In this document: piece by piece, positions 5,311 to 56,007 of the stretch
Numbering within the stretch: the first letter of the stretch is position 1
How the letters are laid out: every line of letters starts with the position of its first letter
From: Escherichia coli
GTDB taxonomy: Bacteria; Pseudomonadota; Gammaproteobacteria; Enterobacterales; Enterobacteriaceae
Assembly (NCBI RefSeq): GCF_044647545.1
Contig: NZ_CP172818.1
Length of the DNA: 64,000 nt
Direction: 5' to 3' (one strand)
Notes under the pieces: generated by a model
What the model was told of the DNA's origin: nothing
Seen by the model: only the letters and a program-made list of their open reading frames with translations
Database searches by the model: none
Position numbers and translations under genes: made by a program

Positions 5311-6576
5311 ATGAAAGCGATCTTAATCCCATTCTTATCTCTTCTGATTCCGTTCACCCCGCAATCTGCATTCGCTCAGAGTGAGCCGGAGCTGAAGCTG
5401 GAAAGTGTGGTGATTGTCAGTCGTCATGGTGTGCGTGCTCCAACCAAGGCCACGCAACTGATGCAGGATGTCACCCCAGACGCATGGCCAACCTGGCCGG
5501 TAAAACTGGGTTGGCTGACACCGCGCGGTGGTGAGCTGATCGCCTATCTCGGACATTACCAACGCCAGCGTCTGGTAGCCGACGGATTGCTGACGAAAAA
5601 GGGCTGCCCGCAGCCTGGTCAGGTCGCGATTATTGCTGATGTCGACGAGCGTACCCGTAAAACAGGCGAAGCCTTCGCCGCCGGGCTGGCACCTGACTGT
5701 GCAATAACCGTACATACCCAGGCAGATACGTCCAGTCCCGATCCGTTATTTAATCCTCTAAAAAATGGCGTTTGCCAACTGGATAACGCGAATGTGACTG
5801 ACGCGATCCTCAGCAGGGCAGGAGGGTCAATTGCTGACTTTACCGGGCATCGGCAAACGGCGTTTCGCGAACTGGAACAGGTGCTTAATTTCCCACAATC
5901 AAACTTGTGCCTTAACCGTGAGAAACAGGACAAAAGTTGTTCATTAACGCAGGCATTACCATCGGAACTCAAGGTGAGCGCCGACAATGTCTCATTAACC
6001 GGTGCGGTAAGCCTAGCGTCAATGCTGACGGAGATATTTCTCCTGCAACAGGCACAAGGAATGCCGGAGCCGGGGTGGGGAAGGATCACTGATTCACACC
6101 AGTGGAACACCTTGCTAAGTTTGCATAACGCGCAATTTTATTTACTACAACGCACGCCAGAGGTTGCCCGCAGTCGCGCCACCCCGTTATTGGATTTGAT
6201 CATGGCAGCGTTGACGCCCCATCCACCGCAAAAACAGGCGTATGGTGTGACATTACCCACTTCAGTGCTGTTTATCGCCGGACACGATACTAATCTGGCA
6301 AATCTCGGCGGCGCACTGGAGCTCAACTGGACGCTTCCTGGTCAGCCGGATAACACGCCGCCAGGAGGTGAACTGGTGTTTGAACGCTGGCGTCGGCTTA
6401 GCGATAACAGCCAGTGGATTCAGGTTTCGCTGGTCTTTCAGACTTTACAGCAGATGCGTGATAAAACGCCGCTATCATTAAATACGCCGCCCGGAGAGGT
6501 GAAACTGACCCTGGCAGGATGTGAAGAGCGAAACGCGCAGGGCAGTGTTCGTTGGCCGGTTTTACGCAAATCGTGA
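5311..6576 (+). CDS. appA: Periplasmic acid phosphatase / phytase AppA with aberrant C-terminus (about 421 aa; canonical about 432 aa)
   Basis: MKAILIPFLSLLIPFTPQSAFA signal peptide and RHGVRAP histidine acid phosphatase motif; C-terminus ends ...NAQGSVRWPVLRKS instead of the canonical ...NAQGMCSLAGFTQIVNEARIPACSL. Confidence 0.85.
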   Translation: MKAILIPFLSLLIPFTPQSAFAQSEPELKLESVVIVSRHGVRAPTKATQLMQDVTPDAWPTWPVKLGWLTPRGGELIAYLGHYQRQRLVADGLLTKKGCPQPGQVAIIADVDERTRKTGEAFAAGLAPDCAITVHTQADTSSPDPLFNPLKNGVCQLDNANVTDAILSRAGGSIADFTGHRQTAFRELEQVLNFPQSNLCLNREKQDKSCSLTQALPSELKVSADNVSLTGAVSLASMLTEIFLLQQAQGMPEPGWGRITDSHQWNTLLSLHNAQFYLLQRTPEVARSRATPLLDLIMAALTPHPPQKQAYGVTLPTSVLFIAGHDTNLANLGGALELNWTLPGQPDNTPPGGELVFERWRRLSDNSQWIQVSLVFQTLQQMRDKTPLSLNTPPGEVKLTLAGCEERNAQGSVRWPVLRKS

Positions 6577-6581
6577 ATGAA

Positions 6582-6840
6582 CGGGGGGACGACGGGCGAC
6601 GGGGGCCGCGGGGAAGACGACGGGACGCGGGGCTATCCGCCAGCGCGGCTGTTCGCGTTGCGGGTCGCGGCGCGGGCCCCGTGGTGCGCCTGCCGCTGGG
6701 CGCCTGGCCTGCTCGGCCTGCGGGGGTTGGTGCGGCGGGGCCGCTTGTCCCGCCGGGCGCCGCGCGCGTCCGCGGGCGGCCGTCGGCGCTCGGCGCGGGC
6801 GGGCCGCGCCTCGGGGGCCGCCCCCCCCGGGCGCCTCTCC
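6582..6840. other. Anomalous extremely GC-rich segment (about 260 bp, mostly G/C) between appA and cspH
   Basis: Composition completely unlike the flanks; G-tracts and a C8 run; only composition-driven Arg/Gly/Pro/Ala ORFs on both strands. Confidence 0.8.
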
Positions 6841-7054: not shown

Positions 7055-7339
7055 ACAAATTCCTTACTGAAAATACTGCGCTGCACTATACGGGGTTAAT
7101 AAAATAAAGCCAGCGATATTTAAGACCGCCGGACGGCTAAAATAAAATTTGCTTAATCTCAATTATCATGCGTTAATAGCTGCGTCGGTTTGAAAGACAG
7201 ACAGCATACAAAGTAGTTTACTAAAGCAGTTCTCATTATCAGGCATTATCCCCTTCTTTTGAGTCTCTCTCCTGAACACTAAGTAGTTTCTGTATTAAAG
7301 CCCTGTTTGCCGAAAGGCCCAAAATGAAGGAAGTAAAAT

Positions 7340-7552
7340 ATGTCTAATAAAATGACTGGTTTAGTAAAATGGTTTAACGCAGATAAAGGTTTTGGCTTTA
7401 TCACTCCTGATGATGGCAGCAAAGACGTTTTCGTCCATTTCACCGCCATCCAGAGCAATGAATTCCGCACGCTGAACGAAAATCAGAAAGTTGAATTTTC
7501 TATTGAGCAGGGGCAACGTGGTCCCGCGGCAGCGAACGTTGTTACGCTCTAA
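7340..7552 (+). CDS. cspG: Cold shock protein CspG
   Basis: 70-aa [29 protein letters not shown]... with long 5' leader as in csp genes. Confidence 0.92.
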
Positions 7553-7751
7553 GGTTGCCGTTATTACTCAACATCTCCATTTCCGCTGTCCATGTTGTCA
7601 TGGTTCACAGTACCGCACATCGGCATTCGATGTGACGGAGCGAAATCCTTTAGGGGCAAAGTGTATTTTTTGTAAATCGACGATGATCACCTTTGATAAC
7701 GTCGCGCTGCAAATACGCACTGAGCATGCGCCGCTGGATTTCACAAAATAA
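7518..7751 (+). CDS. ymcE: Small protein YmcE (Sfa-like); start uncertain, overlaps the cspG 3' end
   Basis: ORF ...[35 protein letters not shown]... ending 7751; start codon choice (GTG 7518) is tentative. Confidence 0.5.
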
Positions 7752-9241: not shown

Positions 9242-9323
9242 GATTTTGCCAGTCCGTTAAGTTGCATACCAAATGCCACTATTCTAGTTGTTCTTAACTG
9301 GCTGATATTGATTCAAATCGCGT

Positions 9324-24131: not shown

Positions 24132-24211
24132 CCGGGCTAATCAATGACGAATGCATTTTTTTCTTAAGCTCGTCAAAAAGCCCACCGCCGGTAACCCCGG
24201 CGGTTTTCTGT

Positions 24212-35005: not shown

Positions 35006-36514
<1,509 letters not shown>

Positions 36515-36515
36515 G

Positions 36516-36550
36516 AGAGGCAATCAGTGATTGCCCTCTGCGTTTTTTCT
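36516..36550 (+). terminator. Rho-independent terminator after putP
   Basis: gagaggcaatcagtgattgccctc hairpin followed by a T-run. Confidence 0.7.
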
Positions 36551-36687
36551 CAAAATATTTTTACATCTTCTCATCATTATCACTACATTTCACTTGTATT
36601 TTTCTTCATCGTAATGATAATCGCTATCACTGCGATTTACTTTTCTTTGCATAGATTGACTCAGAAAAACGTTTAAGGGTGGGTGGC

Positions 36688-37518
36688 ATGTTTGTTCCAT
36701 TTCTCATTATGTTGCGCGAAGGACTTGAAGCCGCGCTGATTGTCAGTTTGATTGCCAGCTATCTTAAGCGTACCCAGCGAGGCCGATGGATTGGTGTGAT
36801 GTGGATTGGCGTGTTGCTTGCCGCTGCGTTGTGCCTGGGCTTGGGTATCTTCATTAACGAAACCACCGGTGAATTTCCGCAAAAAGAACAGGAACTGTTT
36901 GAAGGCATCGTGGCGGTGATCGCCGTGGTGATCCTTACCTGGATGGTTTTCTGGATGCGCAAAGTGTCGCGCAACGTCAAAGTACAACTGGAGCAGGCGG
37001 TCGATAGCGCATTGCAGCGTGGAAATCATCATGGCTGGGCGCTGGTGATGATGGTTTTTTTTGCCGTTGCAAGGGAAGGGCTGGAGTCGGTCTTTTTCCT
37101 GCTGGCGGCATTTCAACAAGATGTCGGGATCTGGCCGCCGCTGGGTGCAATGCTCGGTCTTGCTACAGCCGTGGTGCTTGGCTTCCTGCTCTACTGGGGC
37201 GGTATTCGCCTCAATCTTGGTGCATTTTTTAAATGGACCAGCCTGTTTATTCTCTTCGTCGCCGCAGGGCTGGCGGCTGGTGCCATTCGCGCATTTCATG
37301 AAGCCGGATTGTGGAACCACTTTCAGGAAATCGCCTTCGATATGAGCGCGGTGCTCTCAACTCACTCGCTGTTTGGCACGCTGATGGAAGGGATTTTTGG
37401 CTATCAGGAAGCGCCGAGTGTCAGCGAAGTCGCCGTCTGGTTTATTTATCTCATCCCGGCGCTGGTGGCATTTGCTCTGCCACCACGCGCAGGGGCGACA
37501 GCGTCTCGCTCCGCGTAA
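36688..37518 (+). CDS. efeU: Ferrous iron permease EfeU (intact)
   Basis: Uninterrupted ORF with two REGLE motifs (REGLEAALIVSL and REGLESVFFLL); alternative GTG start at 36679. Confidence 0.88.
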   Translation: MFVPFLIMLREGLEAALIVSLIASYLKRTQRGRWIGVMWIGVLLAAALCLGLGIFINETTGEFPQKEQELFEGIVAVIAVVILTWMVFWMRKVSRNVKVQLEQAVDSALQRGNHHGWALVMMVFFAVAREGLESVFFLLAAFQQDVGIWPPLGAMLGLATAVVLGFLLYWGGIRLNLGAFFKWTSLFILFVAAGLAAGAIRAFHEAGLWNHFQEIAFDMSAVLSTHSLFGTLMEGIFGYQEAPSVSEVAVWFIYLIPALVAFALPPRAGATASRSA

Positions 37519-37575
37519 CAAATACGACGCAAACTCTTGCTTAGTTACAACATACTTTAAAGGGATAGTCTCGTC

Positions 37576-38703
37576 ATGACCATTAACTTCCGCCGTAACG
37601 CATTGCAGTTGAGCGTGGCTGCGCTGTTCTCTTCTGCTTTTATGGCTAACGCCGCTGATATTCCGCAAGTCAAAGTGACCGTAACGGATAAGCAGTGCGA
37701 GCCGATGACCATTACGGTTAATGCCGGTAAAACACAGTTCATTATTCAGAACCACAGCCAGAAGGCGCTGGAGTGGGAGATCCTCAAAGGCGTGATGGTG
37801 GTGGAAGAGCGGGAAAATATCGCCCCTGGCTTTAGCCAGAAAATGACGGCGAATTTACAGCCTGGCGAATACGATATGACCTGCGGTCTGCTGACTAACC
37901 CGAAAGGGAAGTTGATCGTCAAAGGTGAGGCAACGGCGGATGCGGCGCAAAGTGATGCGCTGTTAAGTCTTGGTGGTGCAATTACTGCATATAAAGCGTA
38001 TGTCATGGCGGAAACCACGCAGCTGGTGACCGACACCAAAGCCTTTACCGACGCGATTAAAGCAGGCGATATCGAAAAAGCGAAAGCACTGTATGCGCCG
38101 ACGCGCCAGCACTATGAGCGCATTGAACCGATTGCTGAACTGTTCTCCGATCTGGATGGCAGCATTGACGCCCGTGAAGATGATTACGAGCAAAAAGCCG
38201 CCGATCCAAAATTCACCGGTTTCCACCGTCTGGAAAAAGCATTGTTTGGCGATAACACCACTAAAGGGATGGATAAGTATGCCGACCAGCTTTATACCGA
38301 TGTGGTCGATTTGCAAAAACGCATCAGTGAACTGGCTTTCCCACCTTCAAAAGTGGTCGGCGGTGCAGCCGGACTGATTGAGGAAGTGGCAGCCAGCAAA
38401 ATCAGCGGTGAAGAAGATCGCTACAGCCACACCGATCTGTGGGATTTCCAGGCTAACGTTGAAGGCTCGCAGAAAATTGTCGATCTGCTGCGTCCACAAC
38501 TGCAAAAGGCCAACCCGGAACTGCTGGCAAAAGTCGATGCCAATTTCAAAAAGGTCGATACCATTCTGGCGAAATACCGAACCAAAGACGGTTATGAAAC
38601 TTACGACAAGCTGACCGATGCCGACCGTAATGCGCTGAAAGGGCCGATTACTGCGCTGGCGGAAGATCTGGCGCAATTTCGTGGTGTGCTGGGACTGGAT
38701 TAA
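37576..38703 (+). CDS. efeO: Periplasmic iron uptake protein EfeO
   Basis: 375-aa ORF with signal peptide. Confidence 0.9.
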
Positions 38704-38708
38704 GCGTT

Positions 38709-39980
38709 ATGCAGTATGAAGATGAAAACGGCGTGAATGAACCGTCACGCCGACGTTTACTGAAAGGGATTGGCGCGCTGGCGCTGGCAGGAAGTTGTCC
38801 GGTAGCGCATGCTCAAAAAACGCAAAGTGCGCCGGGGACGCTTTCACCGGATGCGCGCAGTGAAGCGCAGCCGTTTTATGGCGAACATCAGGCGGGTATT
38901 CTGACGCCGCAGCAGGCGGCAATGATGCTGGTGGCGTTTGATGTGCTTGCCAGCGATAAAACCGATCTTGAACGGTTGTTTCGCTTGTTGACTCAGCGTT
39001 TTGCTTTTCTGACTCAGGGCGGAGCGGCACCAGAAACGCCAAATCCGCGCCTGCCACCACTCGATTCCGGCATTCTTGGCGGCTACATTGCGCCCGATAA
39101 TCTCACCATAACGTTATCGGTGGGTCACTCATTGTTTGATGAGCGCTTTGGCCTTGCGCCACAGATGCCAAAAAAGTTGCAGAAGATGACGCGTTTCCCT
39201 AACGACTCGCTGGATGCGGCGTTATGTCATGGTGATGTGTTGCTACAAATTTGCGCCAACACCCAGGACACGGTGATCCATGCGCTGCGCGATATCATCA
39301 AACACACGCCGGATTTGCTCAGCGTGCGCTGGAAGCGGGAAGGGTTTATTTCCGACCACGCAGCGCGTAGTAAAGGCAAAGAGACGCCGATAAATTTGCT
39401 GGGCTTTAAAGACGGCACCGCCAATCCCGATAGCCAGAATGCGAAGTTGATGCAAAAAGTGGTGTGGGTGACGGCAGATCAGCAGGAGCCTGCGTGGACA
39501 ATCGGTGGCAGCTATCAGGCAGTACGCTTGATTCAGTTTCGGGTGGAATTTTGGGACAGAACGCCGCTGAAAGAGCAGCAGACGATATTTGGTCGTGATA
39601 AGCAAACCGGTGCGCCGCTGGGAATGCAGCATGAGCATGATGTTCCCGATTACGCCAGCGATCCGGAAGGGAAGGTGATCGCGCTGGACAGCCATATTCG
39701 GCTGGCGAATCCCCGCACGCCAGAGAGTGAGTCAAGTCTGATGCTGCGTCGTGGCTACAGTTATTCACTGGGCGTCACCAACTCCGGGCAACTGGATATG
39801 GGGCTACTGTTTGTCTGCTACCAACACGATCTGGAAAAAGGCTTCCTGACAGTACAAAAAAGGCTCAATGGCGAAGCGCTGGAGGAATACGTTAAACCCA
39901 TCGGCGGCGGTTATTTTTTTGCGCTGCCGGGAGTGAAGGACGCGAATGATTATCTCGGAAGCGCGTTATTGCGGGTTTGA
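38709..39980 (+). CDS. efeB: Dye-decolorising-type haem peroxidase EfeB (Tat substrate)
   Basis: 423 aa; twin-arginine signal [16 protein letters not shown]. Confidence 0.9.
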
Positions 39981-39989
39981 ACGACGCAA

Positions 39990-40085
39990 ATATGCCCGAT
40001 GCGCAGGTTTATCGGGCATGAGTTTTGTGCACAAATTATTAATCACTTGTAGGTCGGGTAAGGCGTTCGCGCAGCATCCGGCAAA
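39990..40085. repeat. REP/BIME palindromic units downstream of efeB
   Basis: atgcccgat...atcgggcat inverted repeat and a REP unit tgtaggtcgggtaaggcgttcgcgcagcatccggca. Confidence 0.6.
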
Positions 40086-40609: not shown

Positions 40610-41376
40610 TCAAAGCTCGTCGCGAGGCAAAACGTGTGCTGAGACGGGATTCGCGCAGCCATAAGCAGCGTGAAGAAGAATCGGTCACCTCGCTTGTGCA
40701 GATGAGCGGCGTAGAAGCCATTGGTATGGCCCGCGACAGTCGCGATACTTCGCCCATCCTCGCGCGAAATGAAGCGCAATTGCACTATCTGAAGGCTATT
40801 GAGAGTAAGCAGCTGATATTCGCCACGGGCGAAGCTGGGTGCGGAAAAACCTGGATCAGCGCAGCAAAAGCGGCAGAGGCCCTGATACATAAGGATGTCG
40901 ACAGGATTATCGTCACCCGTCCAGTTCTGCAAGCCGATGAAGATCTTGGCTTCTTACCTGGTGATATCGCAGAAAAGTTTGCTCCCTATTTTCGCCCGGT
41001 CTACGATGTGCTGGTCCGGCGCTTAGGGGCTTCCTTTATGCAGTACTGCCTGCGACCAGAAATAGGGAAGGTGGAAATTGCGCCGTTCGCCTATATGCGT
41101 GGACGTACCTTTGAAAATGCAGTCGTCATTCTTGACGAGGCGCAGAATGTGACTGCCGCGCAAATGAAAATGTTTTTAACCCGCCTCGGGGAGAACGTGA
41201 CGGTTATCGTCAACGGTGATATCACGCAATGCGATTTGCCTCGCGGCGTGTGCTCCGGATTAAGTGACGCGCTGGAACGTTTCGAAGAGGATGAAATGGT
41301 CGGGATCGTCCGATTCGGTAAAGAGGATTGCGTACGTTCGGCACTTTGCCAACGTACGCTACATGCATACAGTTAA
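40588..41376 (+). CDS. phoH: PhoH ATPase core (short form, 262 aa)
   Basis: ATG 40588 MGRQKAVIKARREAK...; Walker A GEAGCGKT; ORF track shows an upstream alternative start at 40453. Confidence 0.85.
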   Translation: MGRQKAVIKARREAKRVLRRDSRSHKQREEESVTSLVQMSGVEAIGMARDSRDTSPILARNEAQLHYLKAIESKQLIFATGEAGCGKTWISAAKAAEALIHKDVDRIIVTRPVLQADEDLGFLPGDIAEKFAPYFRPVYDVLVRRLGASFMQYCLRPEIGKVEIAPFAYMRGRTFENAVVILDEAQNVTAAQMKMFLTRLGENVTVIVNGDITQCDLPRGVCSGLSDALERFEEDEMVGIVRFGKEDCVRSALCQRTLHAYS

Positions 41377-41840: not shown

Positions 41841-43166
41841 TTAACCTCTCAGAATCCCACGATCGGGACTTACCCAACGAGCGCGTTGTTTTTTAGGCAT
41901 CAACATGACTCGTGTAAATGATACCAATGTCGTTGCCAGGCTTAGCATCCAGAAAATAACCGGGAACCAAATAATCCAGAAAAGCGATGAAGCCAGATTG
42001 TGCTCATAGCGATTCTCAATCACCAGACTGACAATAAATTGCAGTAAACATAACGTACACAATAATATTCCGGCAGTATGTGTCGCTGCGATATGTGTCA
42101 ATTCAATATTTAACGGTACACCTGCAAGTTGGACTGCGTAAATAATGAAACCGACCAGGCAGGTAAAGGCCCATATTGTCGTCAGACAGTATTCAAAAAA
42201 CAGTGGCCACATTCGAAAGTTTTCTTTGCGCCATAGCCTTGTCATATTTTTGAGGAATACTTCTGCACCGCCCTGAGCCCAGCGCAGGCGCTGTTTCCAC
42301 AGCCCTTTTAACGTTTCAGGCATTAATATCCAGCACAGCGCCCGTGGCTCGTAAAAAATCGTCCACTGATTCAACTGCAGCTTCCAGCTAATATCAATAT
42401 CTTCGGTGATCATATCGTCACTCCAGTAACCCACTTCTGCCAGGGCGCTGCGACGAAATGCGGCAATAACACCGGAAACTGTAAATACGTTTCCATAGAT
42501 ACGCTGGGTCCGCTTGATCAAACCAATAATTGAGGAATACTCGCCAACCTGAATTTTACCCACCAGGGTAGAACGTGTGCGAATACGAGGATTACCGGTT
42601 ACGGCACCCACACGCGGGTTGTACAACATCGGTTCCACAATATATGCCGCCGCATCGCGGTCTAATAACGCATCGCCATCAATGCACACCAGATATTCAC
42701 TTTTCGCCGCGGCAGCTCCGGTTTTAAGCGCAATGGCTTTCCCCTGGTTTTGCGCCAGATGAATGACCCGCAGGTGGGGAATTTGTGCAGCCATGCGATC
42801 CAGGATGGCACGGGTTTTGTCTGTTGAACCGTCATTTACGGCAATAACTTCAATGTTCTCATAACGCTGTGCTAAAGCGGCGTGTATGGTTTCCTCAACG
42901 TTTTTCTCCTCATTAAAACAGGGAATGATAATGGAGATAGACGGATTATCTTTCAACTGGGGGGCTGGTGCGTTTTCTCCCCACGGCCAGTGGCGTTCAC
43001 GATAGACCCAGAAATAGACGCCGCCAACAATCCACATAATGGACATAAAAAACGGCCAGAAGAAAACGAACCTCATCATCAGTTCACCAGAGTGAAAGTA
43101 CGCTACGCATAGGGGGATGCATAACACCAGACATAATATAAAAAACGATACGATGCGATTAATCAT
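41841..43166 (-). CDS. pgaC: Poly-beta-1,6-N-acetylglucosamine synthase PgaC (GT2)
   Basis: 441-aa ORF with glycosyltransferase family 2 motifs. Confidence 0.92.
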
Positions 43167-48198: not shown

Positions 48199-49617
48199 AT
48201 GGAAAAAGACTATTTGGGAATTAGTAGTACTGTATTAGTGAGTTTATTGTTTGGGCTTGCGTTGGTTTTGGTGAATAGTTGGTTCAATCAGCCAACCGTT
48301 GAGGAAGTTGTTCCACGATCAACCTATCTGATGGTTATGATTGCTTTATTTTTTATCGATACTGTTGCATTTATTTTTATGCAGTTGTATTTCATTTATG
48401 ACCGTAGGCAATTTTCAAACTGTATACTTAGTTTGGCTTTTCTAAGTTGTTTGATTTACTTTATTAAAACCGTCATTATCATTCAGCAAATTATTGAGGG
48501 GCGTTTGACAAGCAGTGTTGTTCAAAATGACATTGCAATTTATTATTTGTTTCGTCAGATGAGTTTGTGCGTATTAATATTTCTGGCATTGGTAAATAAA
48601 GTTAGTGAAAACACAAAACAGCGCAATTTGTTTTCCAAAAAAGTGACTTTGTGCATAACTTTGTTTTTTGTTCTTGGGGGGCCGATAGTTGCTCACATAT
48701 TTTCTAGCCATTATGAGAGCTACGATTTACACATTGCCGAGTTAACCAATGAAAATGGTCAGGTGGTTTGGAAAGCCTCATATGTTACCATAATGATTTT
48801 CATGTGGTTAACCTTGCTTTCGGTTAATCTATACTTTAATGGTTTACGCTGTGATATCTGGAACGGGGTGTCGGTGATTGCTTTTTGTGCCGTGCTGTAC
48901 AATATCTCTCTGTTATTTATGAGCAGGTATAGCGTGTCCATTTGGTATATTAGTCGCACTATTGAAGTAGTCAGTAAGTTAACCGTTTTGGTAATTTTTA
49001 TGTGCCATATATTCAGTGCGCTACGAGTAACAAAGGACATTGCACATCGCGATCCCTTAACCAATATATTTAACAGAAATTATTTTTTTAATGAACTGAC
49101 GGTTCAATCAGCATCGGCCAAAAAAACACCTTATTGCGTCATGATTATGGATATTGACCACTTCAAAAAAGTCAACGACACCTGGGGACATCCGGTTGGC
49201 GATCAAGTGATAAAGACAGTGGTGAATATCATTGGGAAAAGCATACGACCAGATGACCTTTTAGCGCGCGTTGGCGGCGAAGAGTTTGGCGTCTTGCTGA
49301 CGGAGATCGATACTGAATGTGCGAAAGCTTTAGCGGAAAGGATTCGGGAAAATGTTGAACGTTTAACTGGCGATAATCCTGAATACGCCATACCACAAAA
49401 AGTGACGATTAGTATTGGCGCTGTTGTAACGCAGAAAAATGAGTTAAACCCTAAGGAGATCTATCAACTGGCTGATAACGCACTTTACGAGGCGAAAGAG
49501 ACCGGGCGTAATAAGCCGCTGTCGCCAGTTGTCGACCTCCGCTTGGGGCTTCTCATCCCCCCGGTGTGTGCAATATACGAAAAAAAAGCCCGTACTTTCG
49601 TACGAGCTCTTCTTTAA
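48199..49617 (+). CDS. dgcT: Diguanylate cyclase DgcT (YcdT) with divergent, extended C-terminus
   Basis: MEKDYLGISSTVLVSLLFGL... membrane N-terminus, GGDEF domain with RVGGEEFGVLL; ORF runs about 20 codons past the expected end into the serX terminator. Confidence 0.85.
   Translation: MEKDYLGISSTVLVSLLFGLALVLVNSWFNQPTVEEVVPRSTYLMVMIALFFIDTVAFIFMQLYFIYDRRQFSNCILSLAFLSCLIYFIKTVIIIQQIIEGRLTSSVVQNDIAIYYLFRQMSLCVLIFLALVNKVSENTKQRNLFSKKVTLCITLFFVLGGPIVAHIFSSHYESYDLHIAELTNENGQVVWKASYVTIMIFMWLTLLSVNLYFNGLRCDIWNGVSVIAFCAVLYNISLLFMSRYSVSIWYISRTIEVVSKLTVLVIFMCHIFSALRVTKDIAHRDPLTNIFNRNYFFNELTVQSASAKKTPYCVMIMDIDHFKKVNDTWGHPVGDQVIKTVVNIIGKSIRPDDLLARVGGEEFGVLLTEIDTECAKALAERIRENVERLTGDNPEYAIPQKVTISIGAVVTQKNELNPKEIYQLADNALYEAKETGRNKPLSPVVDLRLGLLIPPVCAIYEKKARTFVRALL
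49579..49607 (-). terminator. Rho-independent terminator of serX (minus strand)
   Basis: cgtac-tttc-gtacg hairpin adjacent to an A-run on plus (U-run on minus), immediately 3' of the tRNA. Confidence 0.65.
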
Positions 49618-49620
49618 ATA

Positions 49621-49708
49621 TGGCGGTGAGGGGGGGATTCGAACCCCCGATACGTTGCCGTATACACACTTTCCAGGCGTGCTCCTTCAGCCACTCGGAC
49701 ACCTCACC
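49621..49708 (-). tRNA. serX: tRNA-Ser (GGA anticodon)
   Basis: Reverse complement reads GGTGAGGTGTCCGAGTGGCTGAAGGAGCACGCCTGGAAAGTGTGTATACGGCAACGTATCGGGGGTTCGAATCCCCCCCTCACCGCCA with long variable arm and 3' CCA. Confidence 0.93.
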
Positions 49709-55252: not shown

Positions 55253-56007
55253 GATGAAACCCCGCTTTTTTTTATTGATCGCACACCTGACAGCTGCCTC
55301 TAAAATAGAAGCACCAGAAGTACTGACAGATGTTGCACTGCTGTGTGTAGTAATAAATCAGCCCTAAATGGGTAAAATATAAAACTAATGGATTACATCT
55401 GATTTCAATCTAGCCATTACAAATCTTAAATCAAGTGTTAAACATGTAACTAAATGTAACTCGTTATATTGAAATGTTAATCTTAAGGTTTTATTAAGTT
55501 TAGAAATGATAGAAAAGTTGTACATTTGGTTTTTATTGCACAATTTTAAAAAATCATACAAATGGTGCTAACTTGCTAATAATGCATATAAAAAATATTT
55601 CGGTGTAGTCCTTTCGTCATGTAAAACGTTCTTGTTTTTTCTCTACACCTCCTTGGACAATTTTTTACTGCAAAAAGACGAGGTTTGTCACGGCTTGTGC
55701 GCAAGACATATCGCAGCAATCAGCGACGTGCAAGAAGAATGGCTGTCTGGTGATTTTTGATTGCGGAAAACGGAGATTTAAAAGAAAACAAAATATTTTT
55801 TTGCGTAGATAACAGCGTATTTACGTGGGTTTTAATACTTTGGTATGAACAAAAAAAGAAAAATACAACGCGCGGGTGAGTTATTAAAAATATTTCCGCA
55901 GACATACTTTCCATCGTAACGCAGCGTTAACAAAATACAGGTTGCGTTAACAACCAAGTTGAAATGATTTAATTTCTTAAATGTACGACCAGGTCCAGGG
56001 TGACAAC
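55253..56007. promoter_or_regulatory. csgD-csgB divergent intergenic regulatory region (AT-rich, about 750 bp)
   Basis: Long AT-rich non-coding interval between divergent csgDEFG and csgBAC. Confidence 0.8.

Follow-up and report, generated by a model that had tools for sequence, protein, structure and literature searches.

The efeU gene occupies positions 36688-37518 (+) of the window, by which we mean the whole 64,000-nucleotide stretch of DNA that was analysed. According to the list of open reading frames, the family HMMs and the alignments, it encodes an Ftr1p-like inner-membrane iron permease of 276 aa and is uninterrupted. The six-frame ORF list gives an open frame at 36679-37518 (+) that is 279 aa long when read from a GTG codon and 276 aa long when read from the ATG at 36688, with TAA at 37516-37518 as the stop codon. 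The ATG at 36688 is also the start given by RefSeq for the identical sequence in the strains ST648 and ECONIH1 (831 bp, WP_000497942.1). An intact efeU of 276 aa at 36688-37518 had been called in the initial annotation, and the ORF list confirms it with exactly these coordinates. A frameshift or a stop codon within this interval had been named beforehand as what would speak against the call, and re-translation revealed neither.

The translated protein matches the Pfam family FTR1 (PF03239) over residues 1-275 with 300 bits (cut-off 25.3, E=1.8e-89), the NCBIfam EfeU equivalog NF041756 with 331 bits (cut-off 255), and TIGR00145 with 352 bits (cut-off 304). The scores against FTR1 and the EfeU equivalog show that the ORF is no chance frame. 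A sequence search of the PDB found no solved relative of EfeU. As had been stated initially, both REGLE motifs (REXXE type) are present. On the basis of the translation and the hydropathy profile, motif 1 comprises residues 10-14 (36715-36729, +), within hydrophobic segment 1, and motif 2 comprises residues 129-133 (37072-37086, +), within hydrophobic segment 4. The number of helices was estimated from Kyte-Doolittle hydropathy with a 19-residue window, which yields seven peaks of at least 1.59, at residues 5-23, 38-56, 70-88, 119-138, 152-170, 185-203 and 248-266. Published EfeU is described as a protein of 276 residues and seven helices that belongs to the OFeT family (PMC9174327), and the seven hydrophobic segments and the placement of the motifs in the window protein agree with this description.

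Downstream of efeU, and on the same strand, lie efeO and efeB, the gaps in the order efeU-efeO-efeB being 57 bp and 5 bp. The efeO gene (37576-38703, +) encodes a periplasmic protein of 375 aa, identified by Pfam, NCBIfam and PDB matches, which combines a cupredoxin-like domain (Cupredoxin_1, PF13473) with an M75 (imelysin) domain (Peptidase_M75, PF09375). It scores 479 bits against NCBIfam NF041757 (cut-off 270) and matches the solved structure of E. coli EfeO (PDB 7wgu) with E=3e-228. Its HxxE motif reads HRLE, at residues 217-220, and its N-terminal signal peptide, which ends in FMANA, is identical to the one given in PMC7549933.

The efeB gene (38709-39980, +) encodes a Tat-exported DyP-type haem peroxidase/deferrochelatase of 423 aa, the assignment being based on Pfam, TIGR01412 and PDB matches. 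Both Dyp_perox_N and Dyp_perox_C are found, the score against TIGR01412 is 616 bits (cut-off 428), and the PDB search shows the protein to be near-identical to the YcdB structures 2y4f (E=2e-263), 2y4d and 3o72. The twin arginines lie in the Tat motif SRRRLLK at residues 13-19. Asp235, His329 and Arg347 are kept; in the numbering of the YcdB structure papers we take these to be the catalytic Asp, the proximal His and the distal Arg, respectively. The earlier statement that efeU is followed by an intact efeO and an intact efeB with a Tat signal is thus correct, both frames being open and SRRRLLK being present. A terminator-like hairpin at 39991-40020 (+), found by consensus match only and having an 11-pair stem with 5 G-C pairs, lies 10 bp past the efeB stop and is the probable end of the operon.

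On the upstream side, a three-way alignment defines a proximal block at 36608-36687 (+) that would comprise the promoter, the operator and the ribosome-binding site. These 80 bp before the efeU ATG are 100% identical in the window, in K-12 MG1655 and in O157:H7 Sakai. Direct scoring predicts a Fur-box-like site, CGTAATGATAATCGCTATC, at 36610-36628 (+), which agrees with the consensus GATAATGATAATCATTATC at 15/19 positions. It is the sole match of at least 15/19 in the 64-kb window and is the same in K-12 and Sakai; a consensus search at up to 3 mismatches gave no match. A Fur box at efeU and control by Fur and CpxR have been reported (PMC4145685, PMC9600279), and exposure of ExPEC to serum induces efeU and efeOB (PMC4145685). 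A scan for the sigma-70 promoter consensus showed no enrichment (2 found vs 3.5 expected from shuffles), for which reason no -35/-10 pair is assigned, and upstream of efeU the Rfam scan at gathering level gave no RNA family.

The control region is bounded upstream by a terminator-like hairpin of putP at 36515-36550 (+), recognized from sequence, alignment and RNA fold. It adjoins the putP stop codon (36512-36514), consists of GAGAGGCAATCA-G-TGATTGCCCTCT followed by a T-run, and folds with -14.5 kcal/mol. Just past the putP stop, at 36518/36519 and 170 bp upstream of the efeU ATG, there is a deletion of 46 bp with AGAG microhomology at its flanks, which is private relative to all ST648, IAI39 and CE10-type genomes. 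The contiguous junction 36518/36519 is present in no complete E. coli genome searched. As a result of the deletion, the perfect 13-bp stem of the putP terminator has become a bulged stem of 11 bp. This deletion is the only source-specific feature near efeU.

At 173 bp, the putP-efeU spacer of the window is the shortest seen, compared to 219 bp in ST648/ECONIH1, 542 bp in K-12 and 2,673 bp in Sakai. In K-12, ca 370 bp of extra sequence, REP-like sequence included, follow putP, and the Sakai spacer holds an additional gene, ECs_1262, of 447 aa. The structure of the spacer is hypervariable from one lineage to the next. Upstream of 36608, the control region differs from those of both K-12 and Sakai, and since the 46-bp private deletion also falls there, the distal regulation of efeU could differ in this strain. 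One could speculate that the trimmed putP terminator allows read-through from putP into efeUOB, such that iron uptake would be coupled to proline in this strain, and that variation of the spacer tunes efeUOB; we regard this as very improbable.

The alignment with K-12 efeU that the initial annotation had proposed as a check shows one deleted G and 12 substitutions. The deleted base is the first of codon 36 (GGT), present here at 36793 (+) and missing in K-12 MG1655, where its loss leads to a stop two codons on. All of the 12 substitutions are at third codon positions and are synonymous, and the translation of K-12 efeU with the missing base restored (frame 2) equals the window EfeU exactly. 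The claim that efeU (ycdN) is split by a frameshift in K-12 holds accordingly: the lesion is a 1-bp deletion in codon 36, MG1655 efeU is annotated as the pseudogene b4490 with a length of 830 bp, and the same lesion is described in PMC3577903. The deletion lies outside any homopolymer run and so is not a site of phase variation.

To count the K-12 allele, a 90-bp K-12 probe spanning the deletion was matched at 99% or more to the complete E. coli genomes that have the locus. The deletion allele is found in 368 of the 5,417 genomes (6.8%), and all 60 of the 60 carriers among the matches listed are K-12 laboratory derivatives (MG1655, DH5alpha, DH1, C600, J53, NCM3722 and others). The converse probe, 91 bp of window sequence, has a 100% match in 3,343 genomes, and the remaining genomes, in the rows sampled, have single SNPs at the 91-bp span or carry the 90-bp K-12 span (DH10B, for example). 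With ca 93% of the complete E. coli genomes being without the K-12 deletion, an intact efeU is the norm of the species, and for this reason it excludes the K-12 lineage only and says nothing strain-specific.

Over the 13.6 kb shared with K-12, the flanking DNA has 96.3-97.5% identity to it. For the 1,001 bp around efeU, at least 30 independent complete genomes among the matches listed have 100% identity, including 'ST648', MS6198 and ECONIH1, and 103 genomes have 99% or more. A 25-kb query is 100% identical, bar two private deletions, to ECONIH1, MS6198, IMT16316 and others, and the EfeU, EfeO and EfeB proteins are identical to their ECONIH1 counterparts. MS6198, IMT16316 and ECONIH1 are, we assume, ST648 strains. 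A non-K-12 background had been proposed from the intact efeU, and the 12 synonymous sites in efeU, the flank identity, the spacer length and the ST648-type nearest genomes all agree with it; from the sequence, an origin outside the K-12 lineage is firmly supported. By closest whole-locus identity the background would be ST648-type (phylogroup F), a sequence type that is assigned by nearest neighbour because no MLST locus lies inside the window.

One known system for comparison is the functional EfeUOB of O157:H7 (YcdNOB; Cao et al. 2007, Mol Microbiol 65:857), which has the same gene order at the same site between putP and phoH. EfeU shows 100% aa identity to Sakai ECs_1263, with 0 aa differences for 12 nucleotide differences, and is preceded by the same 80 bp before the ATG, whereas the 2,673-bp Sakai spacer with ECs_1262 sets it apart from the 173-bp spacer of the window. 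The partner proteins differ slightly more, EfeO at 4 of 375 aa (34 nucleotide differences in efeO) and EfeB at 8 of 423 aa (57 in efeB), and none of these EfeB and EfeO substitutions falls at the residues checked. The K-12 MG1655 locus (ycdN, b4490) is the same, with putA, putP, efeO, efeB, phoH and pgaDCBA as neighbours; it differs by the missing G of codon 36, the longer putP spacer, and 5 aa substitutions in EfeO and 8 in EfeB. That 0 replacement vs 12 silent changes are obtained twice independently, with K-12 and with Sakai, is a sign of purifying selection on EfeU.

According to Cao 2007 and Grosse 2006, cited through PMC7549933, PMC2808357, PMC3577903 and PMC9174327, efeU is cryptic in K-12 and EfeUOB is functional in O157:H7. 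The O157:H7 system is presented there as a working, acid-induced Fe2+ transporter that is repressed by CpxAR (Cao 2007, quoted in PMC7549933, PMC9174327 and PMC3577903). Given the 100% aa identity to the Sakai protein, we infer that the window EfeU would transport Fe2+ as well. A working low-pH Fe2+ uptake system had been considered likely at the outset, and the identity of EfeU to its Sakai counterpart together with the conserved proximal promoter supports this as probable. EfeUOB is thus probably functional in the source strain, and we infer from the literature that its transport activity, pH dependence, regulation and oxidation step would be those described for the known systems.

In the most likely mechanism, EfeU would be a seven-helix inner-membrane permease, in which the REGLE motifs of helices 1 and 4 would carry iron across the membrane. 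EfeO, a reported Sec substrate, would bind iron in the periplasm, its cupredoxin and M75 sites being the reported places of metal binding, and EfeB would be a haem-containing DyP peroxidase that is exported in folded form via the Tat pathway. Jointly, the three proteins would import Fe2+ under acidic conditions, probably by oxidation of Fe2+ in the periplasm and delivery of the resulting Fe3+ to EfeU, in analogy to yeast Fet3p/Ftr1p and to the model for B. subtilis. The operon would be repressed by Fur when iron suffices and by CpxAR at higher pH.

The analogy with Ftr1p/Fet3p of S. cerevisiae (OFeT) holds for the permease, with which the window EfeU shares the full-length FTR1 domain, the seven segments, and REXXE in segments 1 and 4. 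It does not extend to the partners, since Fet3p is a multicopper oxidase, whereas the window has the unrelated cupredoxin/M75 protein EfeO and the DyP haem peroxidase EfeB (PMC9174327). EfeUOB of B. subtilis (YwbLMN) and FepABC of S. aureus are likewise tripartite, combining an Ftr1-like permease with an M75 binding protein and a DyP peroxidase that is exported via Tat (PMC3577903, PMC9174327). The B. subtilis protein YwbM has M75 only, without a cupredoxin domain (PMC9174327), whereas the window EfeO has both.

It should be noted that there is debate about which substrate EfeUOB uses physiologically, with Fe2+, Fe3+ and haem iron all being considered (PMC3577903, PMC9174327). The operon could be intact and yet have as its main job the removal of iron from haem within the periplasm, with EfeB acting as a deferrochelatase and EfeU as the importer, instead of the scavenging of Fe2+ at low pH. 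According to PMC3577903, periplasmic haem iron can be used without the Dpp haem permease when the O157:H7 EfeUOB with a complete efeU is present, and EfeB frees the iron from haem with the tetrapyrrole left intact; the window EfeB is near-identical to the EfeB described in that study. For the paralogue YfeX, on the other hand, the same source describes deferrochelatase activity as controversial, and low-pH Fe2+ uptake was shown by Cao 2007, as cited in PMC9174327. The haem-iron and Fe2+ roles are compatible with each other, and sequence cannot separate them; we consider it unlikely that haem is the main job. Another scenario is that the genes are intact and the system is either silent, owing to the altered distal upstream region, or dispensable, being redundant with Feo, Sit, MntH and siderophores. 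The changes upstream of 36608, including the deletion 170 bp before the ATG, would fit with a silent operon. The delta-efeOB mutant of ExPEC PCN033 has full, wild-type virulence (PMC7549933), which fits with a dispensable one and implies that EfeUOB may contribute little to fitness or be redundant. However, the fact that both comparisons give 12 silent changes and no aa change for EfeU speaks for continued selection, the core promoter, the Fur-box-like site and the ribosome-binding site are the same as in the functional O157:H7 operon, and efeU and efeOB respond to serum in ExPEC (PMC4145685). A silent or dispensable system is therefore distinctly improbable in our view.

The window differs from its closest relative, ECONIH1, by two SNPs and five private indel differences, and this indel-heavy pattern raises doubt about the quality of the sequence, including the possibility that the intact frame of efeU is a sequencing or assembly artefact that hides a real lesion. 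No private indel lies inside 36608-40020, however, and the identity of the three Efe proteins to those of ECONIH1 and of the surrounding 1,001 bp to the many independent complete genomes among the matches listed leave a negligible chance for this. A sequencing artefact as the source of the intact frame was thus rejected, as the coding region matches many independent genomes. In our judgement it is very likely that 36608-40020 holds the efeUOB (ycdNOB) operon in its canonical, undamaged form, in an E. coli that is not K-12 and has ST648-type strains as its closest relatives.

An intact efeUOB is as such already known, since the K-12 lesion and the function in other strains were published in 2006-2007. 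The present locus confirms that the source strain does not derive from K-12 and possesses the complete EfeUOB gene set, as do ca 93% of sequenced E. coli. Beyond annotation this has little consequence; in annotation, the K-12 label 'efeU pseudogene' should not be transferred to other strains.

The five private differences to ECONIH1 consist of deletions of 1 bp, 2 bp, 46 bp and 50 bp and a GC-rich replacement of ca 250 bp. The replacement, at 6582-6834, has 84% G+C, which is very atypical for E. coli, and stands at the appA/cspH junction in place of the 19-bp hairpin GCACGCATACCGGCGTGCG of ECONIH1. K-12 has the etk-etp-gfc cluster at this junction, and the lineage of the window lacks it. Searches of 5,426 E. 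coli genomes, the PLSDB plasmids, 100,044 species genomes, the JGI metagenomes and IMG/VR gave no match to the block, which belongs to no Rfam family and, when folded as DNA, does not outperform shuffles. Its possible origins include an assembly artefact, a chimera and a foreign insert. Next to it, appA is truncated by a 1-bp deletion at 6544, giving 431 aa with a stop at 6576. The 50-bp deletion is at 49515-49519, where the window reads CCG instead, and removes the stop codon of dgcT (ycdT, a diguanylate cyclase), the ORF of which runs ca 33 codons further and ends at 49617, 3 bp short of tRNA-Ser(GGA) at 49621-49708. The 2-bp deletion (AT) is at 24182, in the ymdF-rutG intergenic region. Taken as a whole, such a predominance of indels suggests that the source is chimeric or that the assembly is at fault, with efeUOB untouched.

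Some further genes of the window differ in their state between related genomes. The torS gene (9313-12056, -) carries a frameshift annotation in ECONIH1; the window is free of indels there compared to ECONIH1 and should thus share its lesion, which is apparently near the 3' end, the long ORF stopping at 9324 and not at 9313. A gene of low G+C content at 20084-21128, between cbpA and agp, is uninterrupted here and has an IS1 insertion in ECONIH1; its position is presumably that of yccE in K-12. The pgaC gene (41841-43166, -) is intact here (441 aa) and in ECONIH1, and is annotated as frameshifted in strain ST648. At the Rfam gathering level, the window also contains a cspA-type thermoregulator upstream of cspG (7184-7606, +), naRNA4 (CssrE; 18288-18366, -), the antisense RNA Ysr251, which overlaps the 3' end of phoH (41178-41371, -), and the sRNA ES056 (55309-55400, -).
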